A program made the position numbers and the translations under genes. This document shows positions 28,017-39,997 of a stretch of 64,000 nt of DNA, in pieces (position 1 is the first letter of the stretch; each line of letters starts with the position of its first letter). The stretch comes from Methylorubrum populi (lineage in GTDB: Bacteria > Pseudomonadota > Alphaproteobacteria > Rhizobiales > Beijerinckiaceae). A model generated the notes under the pieces. It did not search any database. It had not been told where the DNA came from and saw only the letters and a list, made by a program, of their open reading frames with translations. The DNA lies in NCBI GenBank assembly GCA_020741775.1, contig DYYG01000063.1, forward strand, positions 24,429 to 88,428, in the 5' to 3' direction.

Positions 28017-28505
28017 CTACGGCTCCTTGAAGCCGTATTCCGGCACGCCGTCGTCGTTGCCGTAATACTTGTAGGGCAGGAACTTGCCGGACATGGCCAG
28101 CTTCACCCGGTCGCCCTTGTTGTTGGCCTCGCGCTCCATGGTCATGTTGAAGTCGATGGCCGACATGATGCCATCGCCGAACTCCTCCTGGATCAGCTCC
28201 TTCCAGGTGGTGCCGTAGACCATCACCAGCTCGTAGAAGCGGTAGATCAGCGGATCGGTCGGCGGCATCTGCGGGATCGAGCCGCGATAGGGCGCCTCGT
28301 TCAGCATCCGCTCCTCGGCCTGGCTCAGGCCGAACAGCGCGGCGGCCTTGGCGGCCTGCGCCTTCGGAAGCTTCATCTGCCCCATGCAGGCGGCGGTGAT
28401 CAGGATCGGCGAGATCCCGCCGATCTCGTCCTGGATGAATTTCCAGGTCCAGCCCTTCTCGCGCTTGATGTCGAGTAGCTTCTCGGTGAGGTCTTCGCGC
28501 TTCAT
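28017..28505 (-). CDS. cynS: Cyanase (cyanate hydratase)
   Basis: PTDPLIYRFYELVMVYG, EEFGDGIMSAIDF, GKFLPY; AGGAG RBS. Confidence 0.95.
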   Translation of the reverse strand: MKREDLTEKLLDIKREKGWTWKFIQDEIGGISPILITAACMGQMKLPKAQAAKAAALFGLSQAEERMLNEAPYRGSIPQMPPTDPLIYRFYELVMVYGTTWKELIQEEFGDGIMSAIDFNMTMEREANNKGDRVKLAMSGKFLPYKYYGNDDGVPEYGFKEP

Positions 28506-28669
28506 GCTGTTCTCCTGTCGCTGGACGACGAGCCGGCTTCGGATGAGCCGTCCGGATGCCGGGGGCGTGGCAACCGGACGGCCGGATCGTCCGCAGATCG
28601 GGACGGATCCTCGGGGCTCGCAGCGGAGAAGCGCACGCGCCTCGCCACGATGCCGCCGGCTAGCGTTGC

Positions 28670-28684
28670 GCAAGCGCTGTGCCA
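28670..28684 (-). promoter_or_regulatory. Sigma-54 -24/-12 promoter facing cynS
   Basis: Minus strand TGGCAC-AGCGC-TTGC, an exact match to TGGCAC-N5-TTGC. Confidence 0.85.
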
Positions 28685-28743
28685 TTGGCATCGTAGATCA
28701 AAAAGCAATCTAGATCAGCAATTTAGAGAAACGGTGCTTTGCT

Positions 28744-28793
28744 ACGAGATCTCGTCTATGACGATATATCGTAGAATGAGTGCGAGATCTCGT
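28744..28793. promoter_or_regulatory. Three 12-bp palindromes, probable enhancer (UAS) for the adjacent activator
   Basis: ACGAGATCTCGT (28744-55), ACGATATATCGT (28761-72), GCGAGATCTCGT (28782-93). Confidence 0.65.
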
Positions 28794-30687
28794 CGTGTCC
28801 GTTTCCGCTTCTGCGTCACTCCCGTCAGATTACGGTAGGGTTTTTGAGGAGACTCACGAAGCCATGCTCGTGATCGAGCCGCTCGCCGACCGTGTCGCCG
28901 ATGCGAATACCGCCGCCGCCCGTCTTCTCGGCCGGTCCCGTGCCGATCTCTGCGCGATGGCGGTCAGTGCGCTGCACCCGGAGCAGCGCGCCGCCCTGAT
29001 CGTGTTTACGGAGGGCGTGCTCGCGCAGGGACGATGGTGGACCCAGGGCCTGACGCCGAGCCATGGCGGCGGGGCTGCGCTGCGGCTCGAATACGTCGCC
29101 TCCCGGCTGTCGGGTGAGCCGACCCGCCTTCTCTTGACGCTGTTCGACCTCGACGAGCGCGAGCGCCGCCGGATCGACCGCGAGGCGGAGGAGCATATGC
29201 GGGCGGGTCTGCCGGAATGGCAGCGGATGGAGCGGATCTTTCGCGATATCGAGCGGGAGAACCGGCTGATCCTGCGAGCGGCCGGGGAGGGGATCTATGG
29301 CGTCAACGCCGAGGGGATCACGACATTCCTCAACCCGGCGGCGGAGCGGATGCTGGGATGGGACGCCGCCGATCTCGTCGGCAAAGACATGCACGCCACC
29401 GTCCACCATACCCATCCCGGCGGAGCGCATTACCCGCATCAGGATTGCCCGATCTACGCCGCCTTCCGCGACGGGGCGGTGCATCAGGTCGATGGCGAGG
29501 TGTTCTGGCGACGGGACGGTACCTGCTTTCCCGTCGAATACACCTCGACCCCGATCCGCGAGCGCGGCCGGTTGCTCGGCGCGGTGATCGTCTTCCGCGA
29601 CGTCAGCCAGCGCCGCGAATCCGAGGAGCGGCTGAGGTCGGCACTGGCCGAGGTCGATTCCCTGCGCGAGCGCCTGGAGCAGGAGAATGCCTATCTGAAG
29701 GAGGAGATCCGGGCCGAGAGCCATCACCAGGGCATCATCGGTCGCAGCCCCGCCATCGAGGCCTTGCGCCGCCAGATCGATCTGGTCGCCGGCACCGACG
29801 CCACCGTCCTCGTCACGGGCGAATCGGGCACCGGCAAGGAGCTGATTGCCCGGGCAATCCATGAGGCCAGCCGGCGGCATGACCGGCCGCTGATCCGGGT
29901 CAATTGCGCGGCCATCCCCCGCGAGCTGTTCGAGAGCGAGTTCTTCGGCCATGCCAAGGGCGCGTTCACCGGGGCCCTGCGCGACCGCATCGGGCGATTC
30001 GAGCTGGCCGAGGGCGGGACGCTTTTCCTTGATGAGGTCGGGGAGATTCCCCTCGATCTTCAGGGCAAATTGCTGCGGGTGCTGCAGGAGCGCCAATTCG
30101 AGCGCGTCGGCGAGGAGCGGACCCGCTCGGTCGATGTCCGGCTGATCGCCGCGACCAACCGCGACCTCAAGGAGGAGGTGCGGCGCGGGCGCTTCCGCGA
30201 GGACCTCTATTTTCGGCTCAACGTGTTCCCTATCGCCTCGGCGCCTTTGCGGGAGCGCCGCGAGGACGTGCCGCTCATCGCCCAGCACGTTCTGAAGAGC
30301 GCCGCCCGGCGCCTCAACCGGACGGATCTGCGCTTGACGGAAGCCGATGCGCGGCGCCTCGCCCGCTACGATTGGCCGGGCAATGTGCGCGAGTTGGAGA
30401 ACGTGATCGAACGTGCCACGATCCTGGCCGAGCGCGGGCGCCTCCGTTTCGATCTGCCGGAGTCGCGCTCAGCCGCCCCCCTCCCGGCTTCGGCGGAGCA
30501 GCCGACGGAAGCCGGCTGCCCGCTCAGCGAGGAGGAGCGCCGCCGCCGCGCCCGCGCGGAGATCGAAGAGGCGCTCCGTCTCGGCGGGGGCAAAGTGTTC
30601 GGGCCGGGCGGTGCCGCTGAGTTGCTGGGTCTCAAGCCAACGACCTTGCGATCCCGTATGAGGGCGCTCGGTATCCTGCGCCCCTGA
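28780..30687 (+). CDS. PAS-PAS sigma-54-dependent activator with Fis HTH; start uncertain
   Basis: Two PAS-like domains, [33 protein letters not shown]-terminal [17 protein letters not shown]; no receiver domain. Confidence 0.92.
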
Positions 30688-32408: not shown

Positions 32409-33458
32409 TCACGGTCGAGGAGGCTCCGGATCGAAGGGGCGGAACGCGACATCGGCGGAACGGTCATCGTCGAGCGTCTTCAGGAAAGCGAGCAGATCCG
32501 CCTTTTCCTGCGGGCTGAGGTTGAGCGGACGGATGTCACGGGATCGGCTCGGCCGCTCGATGCCGCCGCGATCATAAAGGTCGATCACCGCGTCCAGGGT
32601 CGCCAGCGATCCGTCATGCATATAGGGCGCACGCCCCGAGACATTGCGCAGGGTCGGCGTTTTGAAGGCGTAGCGCAGGGCGGTCGATGTCGGGAAGAAG
32701 CGGGCTCGGCCGATATCGTTGCCCTTGGCGACGCCGATGTCGTGGAACGAACCGTCGGTGAAGGCCCAGCTCGAATGGCAGGCCGCGCAATGTGCCTTGC
32801 CGGTGAACAGGTCGAATCCGCGTTTGGCGCTGGCATCGACCGCCTGAGGATCGCCCTCGACCCACCGGTCGAACGGCGCCTTGCCCGAAACGATCAGGCG
32901 CTGGAAGGTGGCCAAAGCCTGATCGACACGCTCCTGCGTGACGGGCGGGCCGCCATGAGGAAAGGCCTTCGTGAAAGCCGCGACATAGGCAGGATCCGCG
33001 GAGAGCCGCCGGACCATCTCCTCCGGCGGCATATTCATGTTGCTTGGCGAAGTCAGTGGCGTGCGGGCGACCACTTCGAGGCCGCGGAACTTGCCGTCCC
33101 AGCCATAGATCCCGTCGATCCAGGCGGCGTTGATGAGCGTCGGCGTCCGGAAATCCATCGAGCCGCCATCGTTGCGGGGCGCCTTCGGATTCGCATCGGT
33201 CCAGTCCTGGCCGGGGATATGGCAGGTGGCGCAGGTCCGCTCGCCGTCACGGGAGAGGATGGGATCGAAAAACAGAGAACGGCCGAGTTCCGCTTTCGCG
33301 GCTCGATACGGGTTCTCCTTCGGGAACGGAATCGCGTCAGGTCGCCGAAACTCGGCGAGCTTGGACGCAAGGTCCGGCTTGCCGGTTGTGGCGACCGCCC
33401 AACTTTCCAGTGAGATCGTCAGGAGGGTCGCTATGACCCCCACGTTTATCCGAGCCAT
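32409..33458 (-). CDS. Di-haem cytochrome c peroxidase/MauG-superfamily protein
   Basis: LFFDPILS..., CATCH (76-80), GWDGK, CAACH (224-228), FKTPTLRNV...PYMHDG; N-terminal signal-like segment. Confidence 0.92.
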   Translation of the reverse strand: MARINVGVIATLLTISLESWAVATTGKPDLASKLAEFRRPDAIPFPKENPYRAAKAELGRSLFFDPILSRDGERTCATCHIPGQDWTDANPKAPRNDGGSMDFRTPTLINAAWIDGIYGWDGKFRGLEVVARTPLTSPSNMNMPPEEMVRRLSADPAYVAAFTKAFPHGGPPVTQERVDQALATFQRLIVSGKAPFDRWVEGDPQAVDASAKRGFDLFTGKAHCAACHSSWAFTDGSFHDIGVAKGNDIGRARFFPTSTALRYAFKTPTLRNVSGRAPYMHDGSLATLDAVIDLYDRGGIERPSRSRDIRPLNLSPQEKADLLAFLKTLDDDRSADVAFRPFDPEPPRP

Positions 33459-33525
33459 TCCAACCTCGATCGCGCAGAGATTGGGGGCTTTGCGTGAATT
33501 TTTCGTAAACCCAGGCTATTTGGAA

Positions 33526-33894
33526 CTACTTCACCGATACGAGGAGCTTCATCTTCGGGTGAATGCCACAAAGAATCGTGAATTGACCCGGTTGCGGAAA
33601 GGATACAACGGTCTTGCTGCCCGGCCCTTGCTCCCCCGTGTCGAAGCTGAATTGGGGGCTGTCCAGATAGGCATGGTGAACGAGTTCGCCATCGTCGTTC
33701 ACGATCTCGATCGCCTCACCCGTCCGCAGGGCGACCGCCCCCGGAGCGAAGGCCCGGCCCTTCTGCGTCACCCTGTGGGACGCTGCGGTGCCTGCCAGGG
33801 CAAGCGCCGCCCCGGACGTGGCAAGTGAGAGGAGAAGCAGGGCGGCGCCCGCGCGCCTCGGCGTGGCCGCACCTCTCAGGCGCACGTCTGACAT
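33526..33894 (-). CDS. Secreted amicyanin/plastocyanin-like cupredoxin
   Basis: Signal peptide; type-1 Cu ligand set His73/74 plus C109-x2-H112-x2-M115 (CGIHPKM). Confidence 0.85.
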   Translation of the reverse strand: MSDVRLRGAATPRRAGAALLLLSLATSGAALALAGTAASHRVTQKGRAFAPGAVALRTGEAIEIVNDDGELVHHAYLDSPQFSFDTGEQGPGSKTVVSFPQPGQFTILCGIHPKMKLLVSVK

Positions 33895-34287
33895 CGAATC
33901 TTCCCCGCTTCTCTCAGAGCATCGTCCATGATCCTCGGATCACGAAGATGGCTCTCGCTGCTTGATCGTGCTGCATCTTCTCTCGCGGAACCGACGACCA
34001 CTTCCGCGGACAATGCTCCAGAGCATGGTCCCGAAAGGTGGTTGCCGGCCTTCGGAACAAGACGATGCGAAGACAACAGTCTGACGCATCGTCTCCGATC
34101 TCTTTCCACCAGACGACGCATCAAGGGCACCGCTACGCGCCCGGAGAGATCAGTTAAGCTTCCGTCAGGTTGCGTTCGCATTAACGCCAAGCCGTAAAAA
34201 GACACAATTCCGTCGGGCGCTTGCGGCAGAACAAATTACCTTAACGATTGTCGGTCAGGCTCGCTCCGCGAAGCAGATGGAAGCCTG

Positions 34288-37137
34288 ATGCGTTTTTCTC
34301 GCCCTCCGAACGGCTTTCTACCCTTCCGTGGCGCTCTCGATGCTTTCGTGCGCAGCGGGCACACCATTCGTGGGCGGATCTTTCTTGCCTTCGTGATGCT
34401 GAGCACCATCACGGCGCTGCTCGGCGGCTATGCCGCCTTCGGCATCATGACGACGGGTGCGCTGGTCGACAAAACCTACGATCGCTCCCTGATGTCGATC
34501 AATTACGCGCGCGCCGCCGCGGCCGATCTCGCCTCGCTTCAGGCGACGGTGGCCCGTGCCCGGCTCGCGGGCGAAGAGGAGGAGCGGCAGAGGCTGGAGA
34601 AGCGGATCGAGGCGCTGACGCAATCCTTCGAGGAGGATCTTGAGATCGCGGTGGATCGCGCCCAGTCGGATCGTGCGGCTCGGGAAGCGGCCGCGGCCAA
34701 GGATGCCGTCTCCCACTGGCTCGCCGCCCGCCGGGAATTTGGCCCCGACCGCCAGACGCTGGATGTCTGGCAGGCGCTCGACGCCCATGCGGCCGTGGCC
34801 GAGCAGCACATCGACCTGTTCATCAATTTTACCGCCGGTGACGGCTTCTCCTACAAGCAGACCGCCCGCGCCGTCGTCGCCCGCGACGTGTGGCTCAGCA
34901 TTGCCGCGACCCTGATCGCCATCCTGCTCTCCGGCATCGTCGCCCTGCTGCTGTCGCGGCAGATCGTGCGTCCGGTGGCCGATGCCTCGACGGTCGCGAG
35001 CCGCATCGCCGCCGGCGAACTCGATGTCACGGTGCCGGAAGGGGGCGACGACGAGTTCGGGGTGCTGCTGCGCGCCATGGCGAGAATGCGCGACAACATC
35101 GCCGCGATGATGCGGGAGGAGGTGTCGCAGCGTCGCTCGGCTCAAGGGTTGCTCGCCGACGCGGTTCAGGGCTCCACGGAAGCCATCGTCGTCGTCGATG
35201 CCGCGGGGCGGATCGTGCTCGCCAACGAGCGGGCGGCGGCAGCGCTCGGATTCAAGGCCACGGAGGCCGGGCGTCACCACCTCGCGGAAGCGACCGGTTC
35301 GGCCGTCGCCGATTCCCTGCTCGCCATGCCGGGCACGGGCGTCGCCACCGCCGAGACGCGTTCCGCCGACGGACGCTGGCTGCGCATCAGCCGCAGCCCG
35401 ACGCGCGACGGCGGTTTCGTCGCGGTCTGCACCGATGTGTCCCTTCTCAAGGAGCAGGAGGATCAGCTCAAGCGCGGCAATTCCCAGCTGGATGCGGCGC
35501 TCAGCAACATGCTGCAGGGGCTGTGCCTCTACGATGCCGAGGGCGGCCTGCTCGTCTCCAATCGCCGCTTCGCTGACATGCTCGGTATCGACGCTGCGTC
35601 CCTGCGGCCTGGGATGAGCCTGCGCGACATTGCCGGACTCGTCGAGGCCGCGTCCGGTGACGACGGCCGGGCGTTCAATCTGTTGATGGAGCAGCAGGCT
35701 CTGCTTCAACGCGGATCGAGCGGCTCGCTGTGCTGCCCGATCCGGACCGATTGCATCGTTTCCGTCAGGCAGCAGCCGACCGCCGAGGGCGGCTGGATCG
35801 CGACCTATGAGGATGTCACCCTGCGCTACGAGGCGGAGGCGCGCATCATCACCATGGCGCGTCGCGACACGTTGACGGGCTTGGCCAACCGGATGGTGTT
35901 CGGCGAACGCCTGGAGGAGGCCTCGGCCCATCTCGGCGAGGGTGTCGGGTTTGCCACGCTCTGCCTCGACCTCGACCGCTTCAAGGAGGTCAACGACACC
36001 CTCGGTCATCCGGTCGGCGACAACCTTCTGCGCAGCGTCGCGGACAGGCTCCAGGGCTGCCTGCGGGACACCGATCTCGTGGCCAGGCTCGGCGGCGACG
36101 AGTTCGCCATCGTCCAGTCTGGCCCGCAGGTCCGCGCCGATGCCATCGTCCTGGCCAAGCGCCTGATCGCCGCCTTCCAGAGCCCGTTTCTGCTGGACGG
36201 ACACATCGTGACGGTGGGGCTCAGCATCGGCATCTCCCTCGCCCCCGAGCACGGCACCAGCCCGGAAAAGCTGCTCAAGAGCGCCGACCTCGCCCTCTAC
36301 CGCGCCAAGGCCAACGGGCGCGGCGGCTGGTGCTTCTTCGACGAGGAGATGGACCTGGAACTGCGTAAGCGTCGGGCCCTGGAGAGCGATCTCAAGCAAG
36401 CGGTGCGGAACGACGAATTCGAGCTGGTCTTCCAGCCGATCGTCAAGCTCGACCGCCAGCGCATCGCCTGCTGCGAAGCCTTGCTGCGCTGGCGGCACCC
36501 CGTCCGCGGATATGTCTCCCCGGCGGAGTTCGTCCCGCTCGCGGAGGAAACCGGCCTCATCGGCGAGATCGGCGAATGGGTGCTGCACCGGGCCTGCGCC
36601 GAGGCGGCGACGTGGCCGTCCGGAATCGGTGTCGCCGTGAATGTCTCACCGGCACAGTTCAAGAACGCCGCCGTCGTCCGTGCGGTGAAGGCCGCCCTGG
36701 CCGCGAGCGGCCTTCCGTCGAACCGCCTAGAATTGGAAATCACCGAATCCGTCTTGCTGACCGACAACATGGCGACCCTGGCCACCCTCCATACCCTGAA
36801 GCGCATCGGGGTGCGGGTGGCGATGGACGATTTCGGCACGGGCTTCTCGTCCCTAAGCTATTTGCAGAGCTTTCCCTTCGACAAGATCAAGATCGACCAG
36901 TCCTTCGTCCGCAACCTGGAGCTGACCGGCAATGCCCGGCTGATCGTTCGTTCCGTGATCGGGCTTGGACGCAGCCTCGGCATCACCACAACGGCGGAGG
37001 GCATCGAGACCGAGGCGCAGCTCGAACAGCTCCGCCTCGAAGGCTGCGAGGAAGGGCAGGGCTATCTGTTCAGCCGCCCGGTGCCCTCCGCCCGCATCCG
37101 CGAACTGGTCGCGACCCTGGGCCGGAACGCCGCCTGA
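34288..37137 (+). CDS. Membrane-anchored sensor-HAMP-PAS-PAS-GGDEF-EAL protein
   Basis: Two TM segments, HAMP, PAS-like repeats, DTLTGLANR, RLGGDEF, CEALLRW, DDFGTGFSSL, KIKIDQSF, TAEGIET. Confidence 0.93.
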   Translation: MRFSRPPNGFLPFRGALDAFVRSGHTIRGRIFLAFVMLSTITALLGGYAAFGIMTTGALVDKTYDRSLMSINYARAAAADLASLQATVARARLAGEEEERQRLEKRIEALTQSFEEDLEIAVDRAQSDRAAREAAAAKDAVSHWLAARREFGPDRQTLDVWQALDAHAAVAEQHIDLFINFTAGDGFSYKQTARAVVARDVWLSIAATLIAILLSGIVALLLSRQIVRPVADASTVASRIAAGELDVTVPEGGDDEFGVLLRAMARMRDNIAAMMREEVSQRRSAQGLLADAVQGSTEAIVVVDAAGRIVLANERAAAALGFKATEAGRHHLAEATGSAVADSLLAMPGTGVATAETRSADGRWLRISRSPTRDGGFVAVCTDVSLLKEQEDQLKRGNSQLDAALSNMLQGLCLYDAEGGLLVSNRRFADMLGIDAASLRPGMSLRDIAGLVEAASGDDGRAFNLLMEQQALLQRGSSGSLCCPIRTDCIVSVRQQPTAEGGWIATYEDVTLRYEAEARIITMARRDTLTGLANRMVFGERLEEASAHLGEGVGFATLCLDLDRFKEVNDTLGHPVGDNLLRSVADRLQGCLRDTDLVARLGGDEFAIVQSGPQVRADAIVLAKRLIAAFQSPFLLDGHIVTVGLSIGISLAPEHGTSPEKLLKSADLALYRAKANGRGGWCFFDEEMDLELRKRRALESDLKQAVRNDEFELVFQPIVKLDRQRIACCEALLRWRHPVRGYVSPAEFVPLAEETGLIGEIGEWVLHRACAEAATWPSGIGVAVNVSPAQFKNAAVVRAVKAALAASGLPSNRLELEITESVLLTDNMATLATLHTLKRIGVRVAMDDFGTGFSSLSYLQSFPFDKIKIDQSFVRNLELTGNARLIVRSVIGLGRSLGITTTAEGIETEAQLEQLRLEGCEEGQGYLFSRPVPSARIRELVATLGRNAA

Positions 37138-37406
37138 GACAGGGAAAGGACTCTTAAAGCCGGCGGGCACGGGAACGACCGCGCGGGGCTAACGACGCCG
37201 GCATCCCGATTTTTATCAAAATTGAAGTTATGCATTGTGCTATATCAGCACAACATATGATTAGGCTAACTTGCCGCAAGTTTCCTCTGAACAAACCTGG
37301 GTTCAGGCGATTTCCCAGGCATCGCAGCGAAGGCACAGCCCGGCCGGAAGACCTGGCTATGCACAGCCATGGGGTTTGTGCTTCGCGCAGCCGAGGAATC
37401 GAGCCA

Positions 37407-38264
37407 ATGTATTATCACGACAAGCGTCTTCAATATCCCGTGCGCGTCGATAGCCCGGATCCGGTTTACGCCCGCATGTTGCAGCAGGCGATCGGCGGCA
37501 TCGAGGGTGAGATCCGCGTGTGTATGCAGTACTTCTTCCAGGCCTGGGGCAACCGCGCGCCGAATACGAAGTATCGGGACATGCTCCTGCACACGGCCAC
37601 GGAGGAACTCGGCCATATCGAGATGCTCGCGACCGCGGTGGCGATGAATTTGGAGAACGCGCCGACCAAGGTTCAGGAAGCGGGCGCCGCCGATGCCATC
37701 GTCGGCGCCGTGATGGGCGGTGAGAATCCGCGCCATATCGCCGAGGGCATGCTGCACAAGCACCTGCTCTCGACCGGCATGGCCGCGTTCCCCGGCAATT
37801 CCGATGGCGTGCCGTTCGACATGAACCACATCTATGCCAGCGGCAACATCGCGGCGGACATGTACTGCAACGTCGCCGCCGAAGCGACCGGCCGGACGCT
37901 GGCGGTTCGCCTGTCCAACGCGACCAACGACCCCGGGATGAAGGACATGTGGAGCTTCCTCATCGCCCGCGACACGATGCACCAGCAGCAATGGCTCGCG
38001 GTGGTCGAGGAGCTTGGCGGGGTCGAGGGGGCGCTGCCGATTCCGAACAGCTTCCCGCAATCGGAAGAAAACCAGAAGTTCAACTACAGCTTCTTCGCCA
38101 CGAATCGCGATGGCACCCCGCCGCCGGACGGCCGCTGGACCACCGGACCATCCATCGACGGCAAGGGCACCTTCAGCGTCTTCCAGAACGAGCCCATGGG
38201 TCAGGAGCCGGTGCTCGGCCCGGCGCGGCCCGATAGCGGCGCCGAGAGCCAGCAGATCGGCTGA
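37407..38264 (+). CDS. Manganese catalase family protein
   Basis: MYYHDKRLQYPVRVD.PDP, GGIEGE, EELGHIEM, LIARDTMHQQQW. Confidence 0.92.
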   Translation: MYYHDKRLQYPVRVDSPDPVYARMLQQAIGGIEGEIRVCMQYFFQAWGNRAPNTKYRDMLLHTATEELGHIEMLATAVAMNLENAPTKVQEAGAADAIVGAVMGGENPRHIAEGMLHKHLLSTGMAAFPGNSDGVPFDMNHIYASGNIAADMYCNVAAEATGRTLAVRLSNATNDPGMKDMWSFLIARDTMHQQQWLAVVEELGGVEGALPIPNSFPQSEENQKFNYSFFATNRDGTPPPDGRWTTGPSIDGKGTFSVFQNEPMGQEPVLGPARPDSGAESQQIG

Positions 38265-38346
38265 TTCGAGTCGCGTCCGGCCGGTTTTCTAGCCGGACGC
38301 GTCGTCCATTCTCTTCCGGCACCCGTCGCATCAGGAGACGCCGACG

Positions 38347-38856
38347 ATGACGCTCGATACGCGCGAGATCTACGTCACCGCCCTTAAGAACACACATGCT
38401 CTGGAAATGCAGGCCCTGCAGATCATGGAGCGTCAAGTCGAGCGGCTGACCCGCTACCCTGAAATGGAAGAGGCGCTGCGCCGACACATTCAGGAGACCC
38501 ACGGCCAGCGCACCCGTCTGGAAGAGGCGCTGCAATCCCTCGGAGACAGTCCCTCGACCCTGAAAGAGGGCTTTCTCGGCTTCGTCGGAAACATGATGGC
38601 GCTGGGTCACACGCCGGCGCAGGACGAGATCCTGAAGAACACCTACGCCAACCATGCCTTCGAGAATTTCGAGATCGCTGCCTATGAATCCCTCCTGACC
38701 ATCGGCGAGGCGGCCGGGCACGGCGGAAGCCTGACCGGGTTCCGGCAGTCGTTGCAGGAAGAGGAGGCGATGGCACGCCGGGTACGGGATCTGATCGGCC
38801 TGACGACCAGGCGCTATGTCGATCTCTCGGTAGCGGGCGAGAAGGCCGACCGCTGA
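38347..38856 (+). CDS. DUF892 ferritin-like protein (YciE/YciF type)
   Basis: LKNTHALEMQA...HIQETHGQ..RLE...DEILKN...FENFEIAAYESL...EEEAMA; paired with Mn catalase. Confidence 0.9.
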   Translation: MTLDTREIYVTALKNTHALEMQALQIMERQVERLTRYPEMEEALRRHIQETHGQRTRLEEALQSLGDSPSTLKEGFLGFVGNMMALGHTPAQDEILKNTYANHAFENFEIAAYESLLTIGEAAGHGGSLTGFRQSLQEEEAMARRVRDLIGLTTRRYVDLSVAGEKADR

Positions 38857-38986: not shown

Positions 38987-39997
38987 TCAGGCGGCAAGCC
39001 AATCGAGCGTATCGGCGGCTTCCCAGGCGCAGGGAGCGCTGAGCGAGCCAGCGAACACGGCATCGAGGCGCAGACGCTCGGTCTCGACCACCGAACCCTC
39101 CACCGCGACCGGGCGGCAGCGGCCGTTCCAGCCCGCCGGCACGAAGTCCGGGTTGTGCAGGGCATGATCCGAGGCTTCGGCGAAGAAGGCGCGGTCGCCG
39201 CCATCGATGTAGCTCTCGGCCGGCAGGCCCTCGGCCAGCAGGATGTCGTGGGCATCGAGCTCGACGTGCCAGTAGGTGACGGTGGCGCGCGGCTCGCGGG
39301 TGATGGAGGTGCCGTTGATCAGGCACATCACCGGCACGAGCACGCCGCCCTCGTTGTCGGCATCGGCGCCGACCAGCACCGGGTGACCGGGCGAGAGGAA
39401 CAGGTCACGGGCCGGCAGGCCGTGGCCGAAGGCGCCGGCGCGAACATGGACCGGCTGCTGGTGGAAGGGGAGCGAGCCGGCTTCCGCCGTGATCTCGCGG
39501 TGTCCGATCCAGGTGATGGGCCGCAGGGCGCCGGAGGCGGTAACGGCGAAGTCGCCGACCCGCAGATCCTCGACCGCCACCTCGCCGCGCTCGGTGCGGA
39601 TCTGGGTGCCGGTCACGAAGCAGACGATGTTCGGGCTGTCGGGCGCCTCGCCGCGGGTGACGGGCTGAAGCACGCCCAGCAGCGGCAGGGTACCGCCCTT
39701 CGTCACAGCGATGCCCGCAGGCGTGTTCAACCCAACCGGCGTCAGGGAGAAGTAATAGGTTGGTTCGCCACCGCCCGTCGGAACGGAAAAGCCTTCATAG
39801 GTCGCCGTCGTGGTGATCGGCGCCGTACCCAGGACGGTGACGGTCGCGGCAACCTGATCGCCCGGATTGGTGACGTTACCGGTGATCGTCGCCGTGGTCA
39901 GGAGGGAAGTAAGACTTGTGCCGGTGAAGCCGTTTGCGCCAACAACGCCGGTCGCAGCTTGGCCAGCGGTGAAATCGGTCGCGAAAGTCTCAGCCAT
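38987..39997 (-). CDS. Hint-domain (bacterial intein-like, B-type) protein
   Basis: CFVTGTQIRTERGEVAVEDLRVGD...WIG...DLFLSPGH...LING...YWHVELDAHDILLAEGLPAESY after a 125-aa Thr/Gly-rich N-terminal segment. Confidence 0.9.
   Translation of the reverse strand: MAETFATDFTAGQAATGVVGANGFTGTSLTSLLTTATITGNVTNPGDQVAATVTVLGTAPITTTATYEGFSVPTGGGEPTYYFSLTPVGLNTPAGIAVTKGGTLPLLGVLQPVTRGEAPDSPNIVCFVTGTQIRTERGEVAVEDLRVGDFAVTASGALRPITWIGHREITAEAGSLPFHQQPVHVRAGAFGHGLPARDLFLSPGHPVLVGADADNEGGVLVPVMCLINGTSITREPRATVTYWHVELDAHDILLAEGLPAESYIDGGDRAFFAEASDHALHNPDFVPAGWNGRCRPVAVEGSVVETERLRLDAVFAGSLSAPCAWEAADTLDWLAA

Follow-up and report, generated by a model that had tools for sequence, protein, structure and literature searches.

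To our knowledge, every MauG-type di-haem enzyme known so far is either a protein-modifying oxidant (MauG, MbnH) or an orphan (BthA). These proteins are defined by His-Tyr ligation, and a Glu is described as acid-base catalyst (PMC6405878, PMC11892367). Here, a locus of Methylorubrum populi is described in which a gene for a di-haem protein related to MauG and a gene for a secreted cupredoxin, both on the minus strand, are divergent from a gene for a membrane sensor with HAMP, PAS, GGDEF and EAL domains; the open reading frames (ORFs), strands and coordinates (Table 1) agreed with those given in a preliminary description of the same DNA. The locus lies in a stretch of 64,000 nucleotides, referred to as the window (GenBank assembly GCA_020741775.1, contig DYYG01000063.1, positions 24,429 to 88,428 of the forward strand), from a 4.7 Mb genome that is 100% complete, and the closest named homologue is from M. 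zatmanii (84% identity). The three genes appear to be a local version of a conserved module for envelope signalling, and we give an even chance to the reading that this module serves as a periplasmic redox or ligand-sensing input or relay to signalling by cyclic di-GMP (c-di-GMP). No description of a module of MauG-like protein, cupredoxin and receptor was found in literature searches.

Among described systems, the alphaproteobacterial mau clusters resemble the locus in that MauG has the same fold and falls in the same branch as the window di-haem protein, and is likewise accompanied by a small protein of the cupredoxin type in which the His, Cys and His ligands are conserved; in the window, however, the di-haem gene is of a type whose partners encode a c-di-GMP enzyme and a novel membrane protein, not a dehydrogenase. 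In the MbnH-MbnP system (PDB 6e1c), too, a MauG-like di-haem protein with Tyr ligation acts together with a copper protein of the periplasm, and the bacterial di-haem cytochrome c peroxidases (CcPs; MacA/CcpA, NeCCP), which have cupredoxin donors, share the fold. H-NOX/HaCE, NosP and DosP are haem-based sensors coupled to c-di-GMP enzymes. The likeness to them, a haem protein controlling a GGDEF-EAL enzyme, is by analogy only, with no sequence relationship: the haem protein of the window is a separately encoded, periplasmic c-type di-haem protein of the MauG lineage, and copper and membrane proteins take part in its putative module.

Conservation of the module and its sister lineages

A pattern scan of GTDB species genomes gave at least 586 loci with a relative of the cupredoxin, of which the best 80 were surveyed, 58 of them with at least 5 kb on both sides. 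Within this set, which was obtained with a narrow cupredoxin alignment (A3) and is biased to the EAL-linked clade, a GGDEF-EAL sensor homologue divergent from the cupredoxin gene was present in all 58 full-flank loci, a di-haem gene lay near the cupredoxin gene in 52 and a gene for a membrane protein of 345 amino acids in 49, and all four genes were found together in 47. The surveyed loci span Methylobacteriaceae, Beijerinckiaceae, Xanthobacteraceae and Acetobacteraceae. When 401 genomes sampled evenly from the order were considered, the best cupredoxin matches adjoined a di-haem homologue in 14 genomes from seven families. The preliminary description had named a lack of co-conservation in other genomes as grounds for giving up its proposal; co-conservation of the cupredoxin, di-haem and GGDEF-EAL genes was instead strong across families.

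In the usual layout the di-haem gene, a small ORF with two transmembrane segments (2-TM ORF) on the opposite strand and the membrane-protein gene converge on the cupredoxin gene, divergent from the sensor gene. The full module would usually comprise four to five genes, encoding the di-haem protein, the 2-TM protein, the His-rich membrane protein, the cupredoxin and the sensor-HAMP-PAS-GGDEF-EAL protein. In the source genome the membrane-protein gene is located on another contig (L107:9927-11063, minus strand; small ORF at L107:11280-11468, plus strand), which is why it escaped the preliminary description.

Di-haem genes of sister lineages that keep the distal Gln and Glu (see below) are followed by a cupredoxin gene and then by a gene for a HAMP-containing methyl-accepting chemotaxis protein (MCP), and there the same pair would feed chemoreceptors. 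Two of the sister-clade receptors (L015:7228-9420 and L019:7272-9743, both on the minus strand), from members of the order with a low guanine-plus-cytosine content, have an N-terminal cytochrome b561 domain, in one of them together with a C-terminal PilZ domain, and some sister MCPs share the periplasmic domain of the window sensor (23-31% identity). Judged from the sequences, such retention of the input alongside exchange of the output domain marks a sensory module.

The arrangement expected earlier, of cupredoxin, di-haem, EAL or MCP sensor and OprB genes, stood as regards the EAL linkage and the MCPs, the latter in sister clades, but not as regards OprB, which, like a sigma-54 regulator, was near the cupredoxin gene in only 5 of the 58 full-flank loci, all from Methylorubrum. 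Genes for a Mn catalase and a DUF892 protein were near it in seven, again all from Methylorubrum. OprB, the sigma-54 regulator, cyanase, Mn catalase and DUF892 were rejected as module members, being adjacent only within this genus. At one locus from another family (L020:8937-12422, genome G041), the di-haem gene is kept and the membrane-protein and GGDEF-EAL homologues are present only as fragments that adjoin transposase-like ORFs; in this genome the module has apparently decayed.

Classification and distal pocket of the di-haem protein

The di-haem protein carries a signal peptide and the two haem motifs reported earlier, CATCH (76-80) and CAACH (224-228), and scored 158.8 bits against PF03150 (CCP_MauG; Pfam gathering cut-off 25.6), of which it is the sole representative in the source genome. 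It was aligned (MAFFT) with three true MauGs from mau clusters, MbnH and three peroxidases; the reference sequences of MbnH, MacA, NeCCP and PpCCP were rebuilt from printed alignments, and the numbering of Paracoccus MauG was derived from the coordinates of HMMER-aligned stretches and from PDB entry titles (Q103N, E113Q, P107V, W199F and Y294H MauG), which confirmed that the compared positions are the studied residues. Trp120 was found in the column of the inter-haem Trp (MauG W93), inside a conserved WDG motif, and Pro134 and Met141 matched MauG Pro107 and Met114. Tyr295 corresponded to Y294 of Paracoccus MauG (HMMER, query 263-305 on MauG 262-304) and also fell on the Met ligand of the Nitrosomonas peroxidase. 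The equivalences to MauG, which had been drawn by eye in the preliminary description, were all recovered, and the axial Tyr, as placed by alignment, assigns the protein to the MauG-type His-Tyr branch.

Within the distal pocket, Val130 and Asn140 fill the columns of MauG Gln103 and Glu113, whereas true MauGs, MbnH and peroxidases carry Gln and Glu at these positions. The loss of both residues had been proposed previously, and the MAFFT alignment restored neither Glu/Gln nor the Met ligand. The pocket is remodelled, with Gly119, Lys123, Phe124, Val130 and Asn140 in place of (F/M)WDGRA...Q...E. The lack of a counterpart of W199 was likewise observed, Ala being found two residues ahead of the second CxxCH, but it is not diagnostic, as true alphaproteobacterial MauGs also have Ala there; these MauGs and the window protein have in common a Trp three residues past the second CxxCH ('CHxxW').

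A phylogeny of 86 sequences (IQ-TREE; members of the loci, reference proteins and a selection representing the matches of an exhaustive HMMER search) separated the peroxidases from the Tyr group (100% support) and gave MbnH and the true mau-cluster MauGs a clade each (98% for both). The window protein fell outside the true-MauG clade, in a separate clade of 14 members within the Tyr-ligated branch (99% in the Shimodaira-Hasegawa-like approximate likelihood ratio test). In all 14 the Gln position holds Val and the Glu position one of Asn, Leu, Val and Ile, and the clade shows GWDG(K/H)F versus (F/M)WDGRA in the other sequences. Among homologues from different species linked to the same type of cupredoxin, neither Gln (0 of 68) nor Glu (0 of 68) was found and Tyr was present in all 68, so that the non-canonical pocket is a stable trait of the clade and not the decay of a single gene.

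The score of the protein against the MauG equivalog TIGR03791 (334.8 bits) did not reach the cut-off of 443.85, while MauGs adjoining a verified MauA scored 438-456. No match to MauA (TIGR02659) was found anywhere in the complete source genome, in a search that gave a match in each of three mau-cluster genomes used as positive control, and, as noted before, neither mauA nor mauB is among the genes of the window. The cut-off of the MbnH family TIGR04039 was not reached either (192 vs. 362.85 bits), and where canonical bacterial CcPs have a His-Met E haem and a catalytic Glu, the window protein has Tyr295 and Asn140. On the basis of the sub-cut-off score, the position outside the true-MauG clade, the absence of MauA, the Tyr at the ligand position and the missing Gln and Glu, the protein is classed as neither MauG proper nor a Met-ligated, canonical peroxidase, in line with the earlier statement that it is neither a standard peroxidase nor an enzyme of tryptophan tryptophylquinone maturation. 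An AlphaFold model of mediocre quality (predicted local distance difference test, pLDDT, 73) gave template modelling (TM) scores of 0.6-0.7 to MacA, MbnH and MauG in Foldseek, with MbnH as second-best match (0.71), and with this model Foldseek cannot separate MauG, MbnH and peroxidases.

The best PDB sequence matches of the di-haem protein were peroxidases (147 bits; MbnH, 132 bits), with which it shares both haem motifs, the Trp and the distal-loop Pro and Met. A role in peroxide defence was considered on this account, in which the di-haem protein would be a CcP, the cupredoxin its donor, and the c-di-GMP gene a mere or co-regulated neighbour. Its being the only PF03150 protein of the genome would suit such a role, as would the adjoining Mn catalase and DUF892 genes, and canonical peroxidases are generally known to take azurin or pseudoazurin as donors. 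We nevertheless regard this explanation as very unlikely, given the Tyr in place of the Met ligand and the absence of both Glu and Gln; furthermore, Mn catalase adjoins in 7 of the 58 loci against 58 of 58 for the sensor gene, and MauG-type proteins reportedly perform poorly as peroxidases (PMC11892367).

The features shared with MauG bear on a maturation system, in which the di-haem protein would oxidatively modify the cupredoxin or the periplasmic domain of the sensor, as MauG does with pre-methylamine dehydrogenase and MbnH with MbnP, the modification (e.g., a copper ligand or a group formed from Trp or Tyr) being required for the function of the partner. The window protein is 46-50% identical to true MauGs encoded beside mauA and has in common with them the two CxxCH motifs, Tyr295, Trp120 and the Trp after CxxCH; its cupredoxin is homologous to the mauL-position protein (see below), and MbnH-MbnP provides a precedent for a MauG-like enzyme modifying a copper protein (PMC11892367). 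However, none of the 68 linked di-haem genes retains either distal residue, and the interchangeability of the receptors (four-helix bundle, b561, MCP, GGDEF-EAL) is more easily explained by signalling than by a substrate relation, and we consider maturation unlikely. Of the two options left by the preliminary description, a high-valent haem modifier and a redox or gas sensor, gene context favours the sensor or redox relay, and the former loses ground, as the Glu on which the bis-Fe(IV) state of MauG depends has disappeared from the clade.

Cupredoxin, sensor and membrane protein in a proposed signalling route

By its residues, the 122-amino-acid cupredoxin has the ligand set of a type-1 (blue) copper protein, His73, Cys109, His112 and Met115, and is predicted to bind copper; the spacing of its C-x2-H-x2-M loop is that of amicyanin. 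All residues named as ligands in the preliminary description are present, and H73, C109 and H112 were invariant in family alignments, with M115 invariant outside mau clusters and all four ligands invariant in alignment A3; H74, listed there alongside H73, was variable. The Pfam Cupredoxin_1 score (23.2 bits) was under the 27-bit cut-off, and the PDB matches were cupredoxin domains and plastocyanins. The family proved homologous to the protein of 110-126 amino acids encoded directly after true mauG (hhalign 97.5%, E 5.5e-12), which we take to be MauL from the published gene order mauFBEDACJGLMN and not from annotation; on the annotated plasmid pLVM1 the ORF in this position sits between mauG and NapG/NapH-like genes. 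Unlike the window cupredoxin, mauL-position proteins lack the axial Met. Because of this homology, a MauG-type protein plus a cupredoxin is probably to be seen as an old pairing.

The identity of the sensor as a membrane-bound HAMP-PAS-GGDEF-EAL protein was borne out. A periplasmic four-helix bundle (4HB_MCP_1) lies between transmembrane segments at about 31-50 and 200-222 and is followed by HAMP, PAS, PAS_7, GGDEF (156.7 bits) and EAL (250.6 bits) domains, all of them Pfam matches, with intact RxxD (593), GGDEF (602), EAL (730) and DDFGTG (847) motifs. The membrane-protein family, of 345-378 amino acids (a further example is L082:7334-8371), is accompanied by the divergent 2-TM ORF of 53-62 amino acids and has a signal peptide ending in A-x-A, followed by an invariant HVKWF, and four to five invariant His. 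Its AlphaFold model was confident (pLDDT 85.9, predicted TM-score 0.84), with no structural relative found in the PDB by Foldseek (best E 0.07), and no Pfam family matched the sequence.

The invariant A-x-A/HVKWF junction and His residues, together with the type-1 copper protein in the module and the relation of the di-haem protein to MbnH (192 bits), bring to mind copper sensing or handling. The apo or holo state of the cupredoxin would then report periplasmic copper, the membrane protein, with its invariant His at the mature N-terminus, would bind or move copper, and the di-haem protein would assist, as MbnH does in copper acquisition. We deem this distinctly unlikely: tblastn probes matched no copper-efflux, chaperone or regulator genes, although the flanks were not systematically surveyed for them, the promoters are marked by CtrA-type boxes and not by copper-regulator sites, and with a membrane protein that has no structural relative, its copper role is a guess.

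For the sensory reading, the analysis established gene content, residues, phylogeny and co-conservation; how electrons flow, what the signal is and which proteins make contact are what we infer. The di-haem protein descends from the MauG lineage and retains the predicted His-Tyr electron-transfer haem and the inter-haem Trp, and the peroxide-activating Gln/Glu at the five-coordinate haem have been swapped for Val/Asn, plus a Phe; it would no longer be a peroxidase or a bis-Fe(IV) protein oxidant. It may instead act as a redox- or small-ligand-responsive haem protein that trades electrons with the cupredoxin and probably also with the operon-encoded membrane protein, and the sensor, through its periplasmic four-helix bundle, would detect whether the cupredoxin has changed in redox or occupancy state and set both the synthesis and the breakdown of c-di-GMP.

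Several points weigh against this route. The periplasmic domain of the sensor has no obvious cofactor or metal site, and for this reason the proposed contact between cupredoxin and sensor is drawn from gene context alone. Adjacency could reflect co-regulation and not physical signalling, and loss of Gln/Glu need not abolish the chemistry, as another residue could substitute. The local copy could also be partly decoupled, since its membrane-protein gene is unlinked and a repeat insertion lies in the cupredoxin promoter.

In general, a large, defined clade retains a Tyr-ligated haem pair without the residues that enable its chemistry and is tied to a copper protein and signal transducers. The co-conserved module, present in many soil alphaproteobacteria, points to an undescribed route from periplasmic redox state to lifestyle signalling. 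Should it prove to be a sensor, c-di-GMP and chemotaxis would both gain a new route of input, and the unexplained MauL-type proteins would acquire a physiological role. A broader and more tentative idea, possible but in our view on the doubtful side, is that of a new class of periplasmic sensors, in which a MauG-derived di-haem protein, having abandoned the activation of peroxide and serving as a gas- or redox-responsive haem, is wired to four-helix-bundle receptors via a membrane protein with a novel fold and a blue-copper protein of the MauL type, with c-di-GMP as output here and chemotaxis in the sister lineages, and which would steer alphaproteobacterial lifestyle by the periplasmic oxidant or electron balance.

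Divergent promoter region and neighbouring genes

Table 1. Features of the window, with positions counted from its first nucleotide.
Feature	Position	Strand	Remarks
Di-haem protein	32409-33458	-	ORF of 349 amino acids; Pfam CCP_MauG and cytochrome c domain
Cupredoxin, secreted	33526-33894	-	ORF of 122 amino acids; type-1 copper ligand set
Divergent cupredoxin/sensor spacer, shared promoter region	33895-34287		393 bp
Insertion in spacer	33913-34122		210 bp; two dispersed repeats
GTTAA/TTAAC box	34153-34157		
GTTAA/TTAAC boxes	34169-34185	-	GTTAATGCGAACGCAAC
GTTAA/TTAAC box	34241-34245		
Membrane sensor HAMP-PAS-GGDEF-EAL	34288-37137	+	ORF of 949 amino acids; Pfam
Mn catalase and DUF892 (YciE-like) genes	37230-38856	+	adjoin sensor gene
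Cyanase gene	28017-28691	-	
Sigma-54 promoter	28669-28684	-	TGGCACAGCGCTTGCG
PAS/sigma-54 activator gene	28780-30687	+	
Hint-domain protein	38987-39997	-	Hint_2, 155.9 bits

The divergent region of about 390 bp reported earlier was confirmed in length, yet its size is due to the repeat insertion, the spacer of relatives being about 185 bp long, with conserved GTTAA/TTAAC boxes that are also found in the window. The insertion is absent from 12 close relatives, lies 19 bp upstream of the cupredoxin start codon, which it parts from the conserved boxes, and consists of two short dispersed repeats, one of about 105 bp and one of about 55-80 bp, of which some 40 other copies (76-90% identity) occur in the genome. 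Full TTAA-N7-TTAA boxes, at the place that corresponds to the boxes of the window, were detected in 38 of the 79 divergent cupredoxin/sensor promoters (L027-L106), versus 0.1 expected from shuffled sequences, and a degenerate version is present in the window spacer. This motif is the consensus of CtrA, a regulator of motility and the cell cycle. The CtrA-type boxes suggest control by this regulator in many species, and they fit a signalling or motility regulon.

An EcfG-type reading of the conserved CGTTAA boxes (GGAAC-N16-17-CGTT), made by eye, failed across relatives, and a sigma-70 scan for promoters gave no match. No sigma-54 promoter was found in the divergent region, the only good site being a near-perfect one upstream of the cyanase gene. 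This site faces the divergent gene for a PAS/sigma-54 activator, and the two genes are probably a cyanate-responsive pair unrelated to the module. Also unrelated to it is a Hint-domain protein, of a kind common in Alphaproteobacteria.

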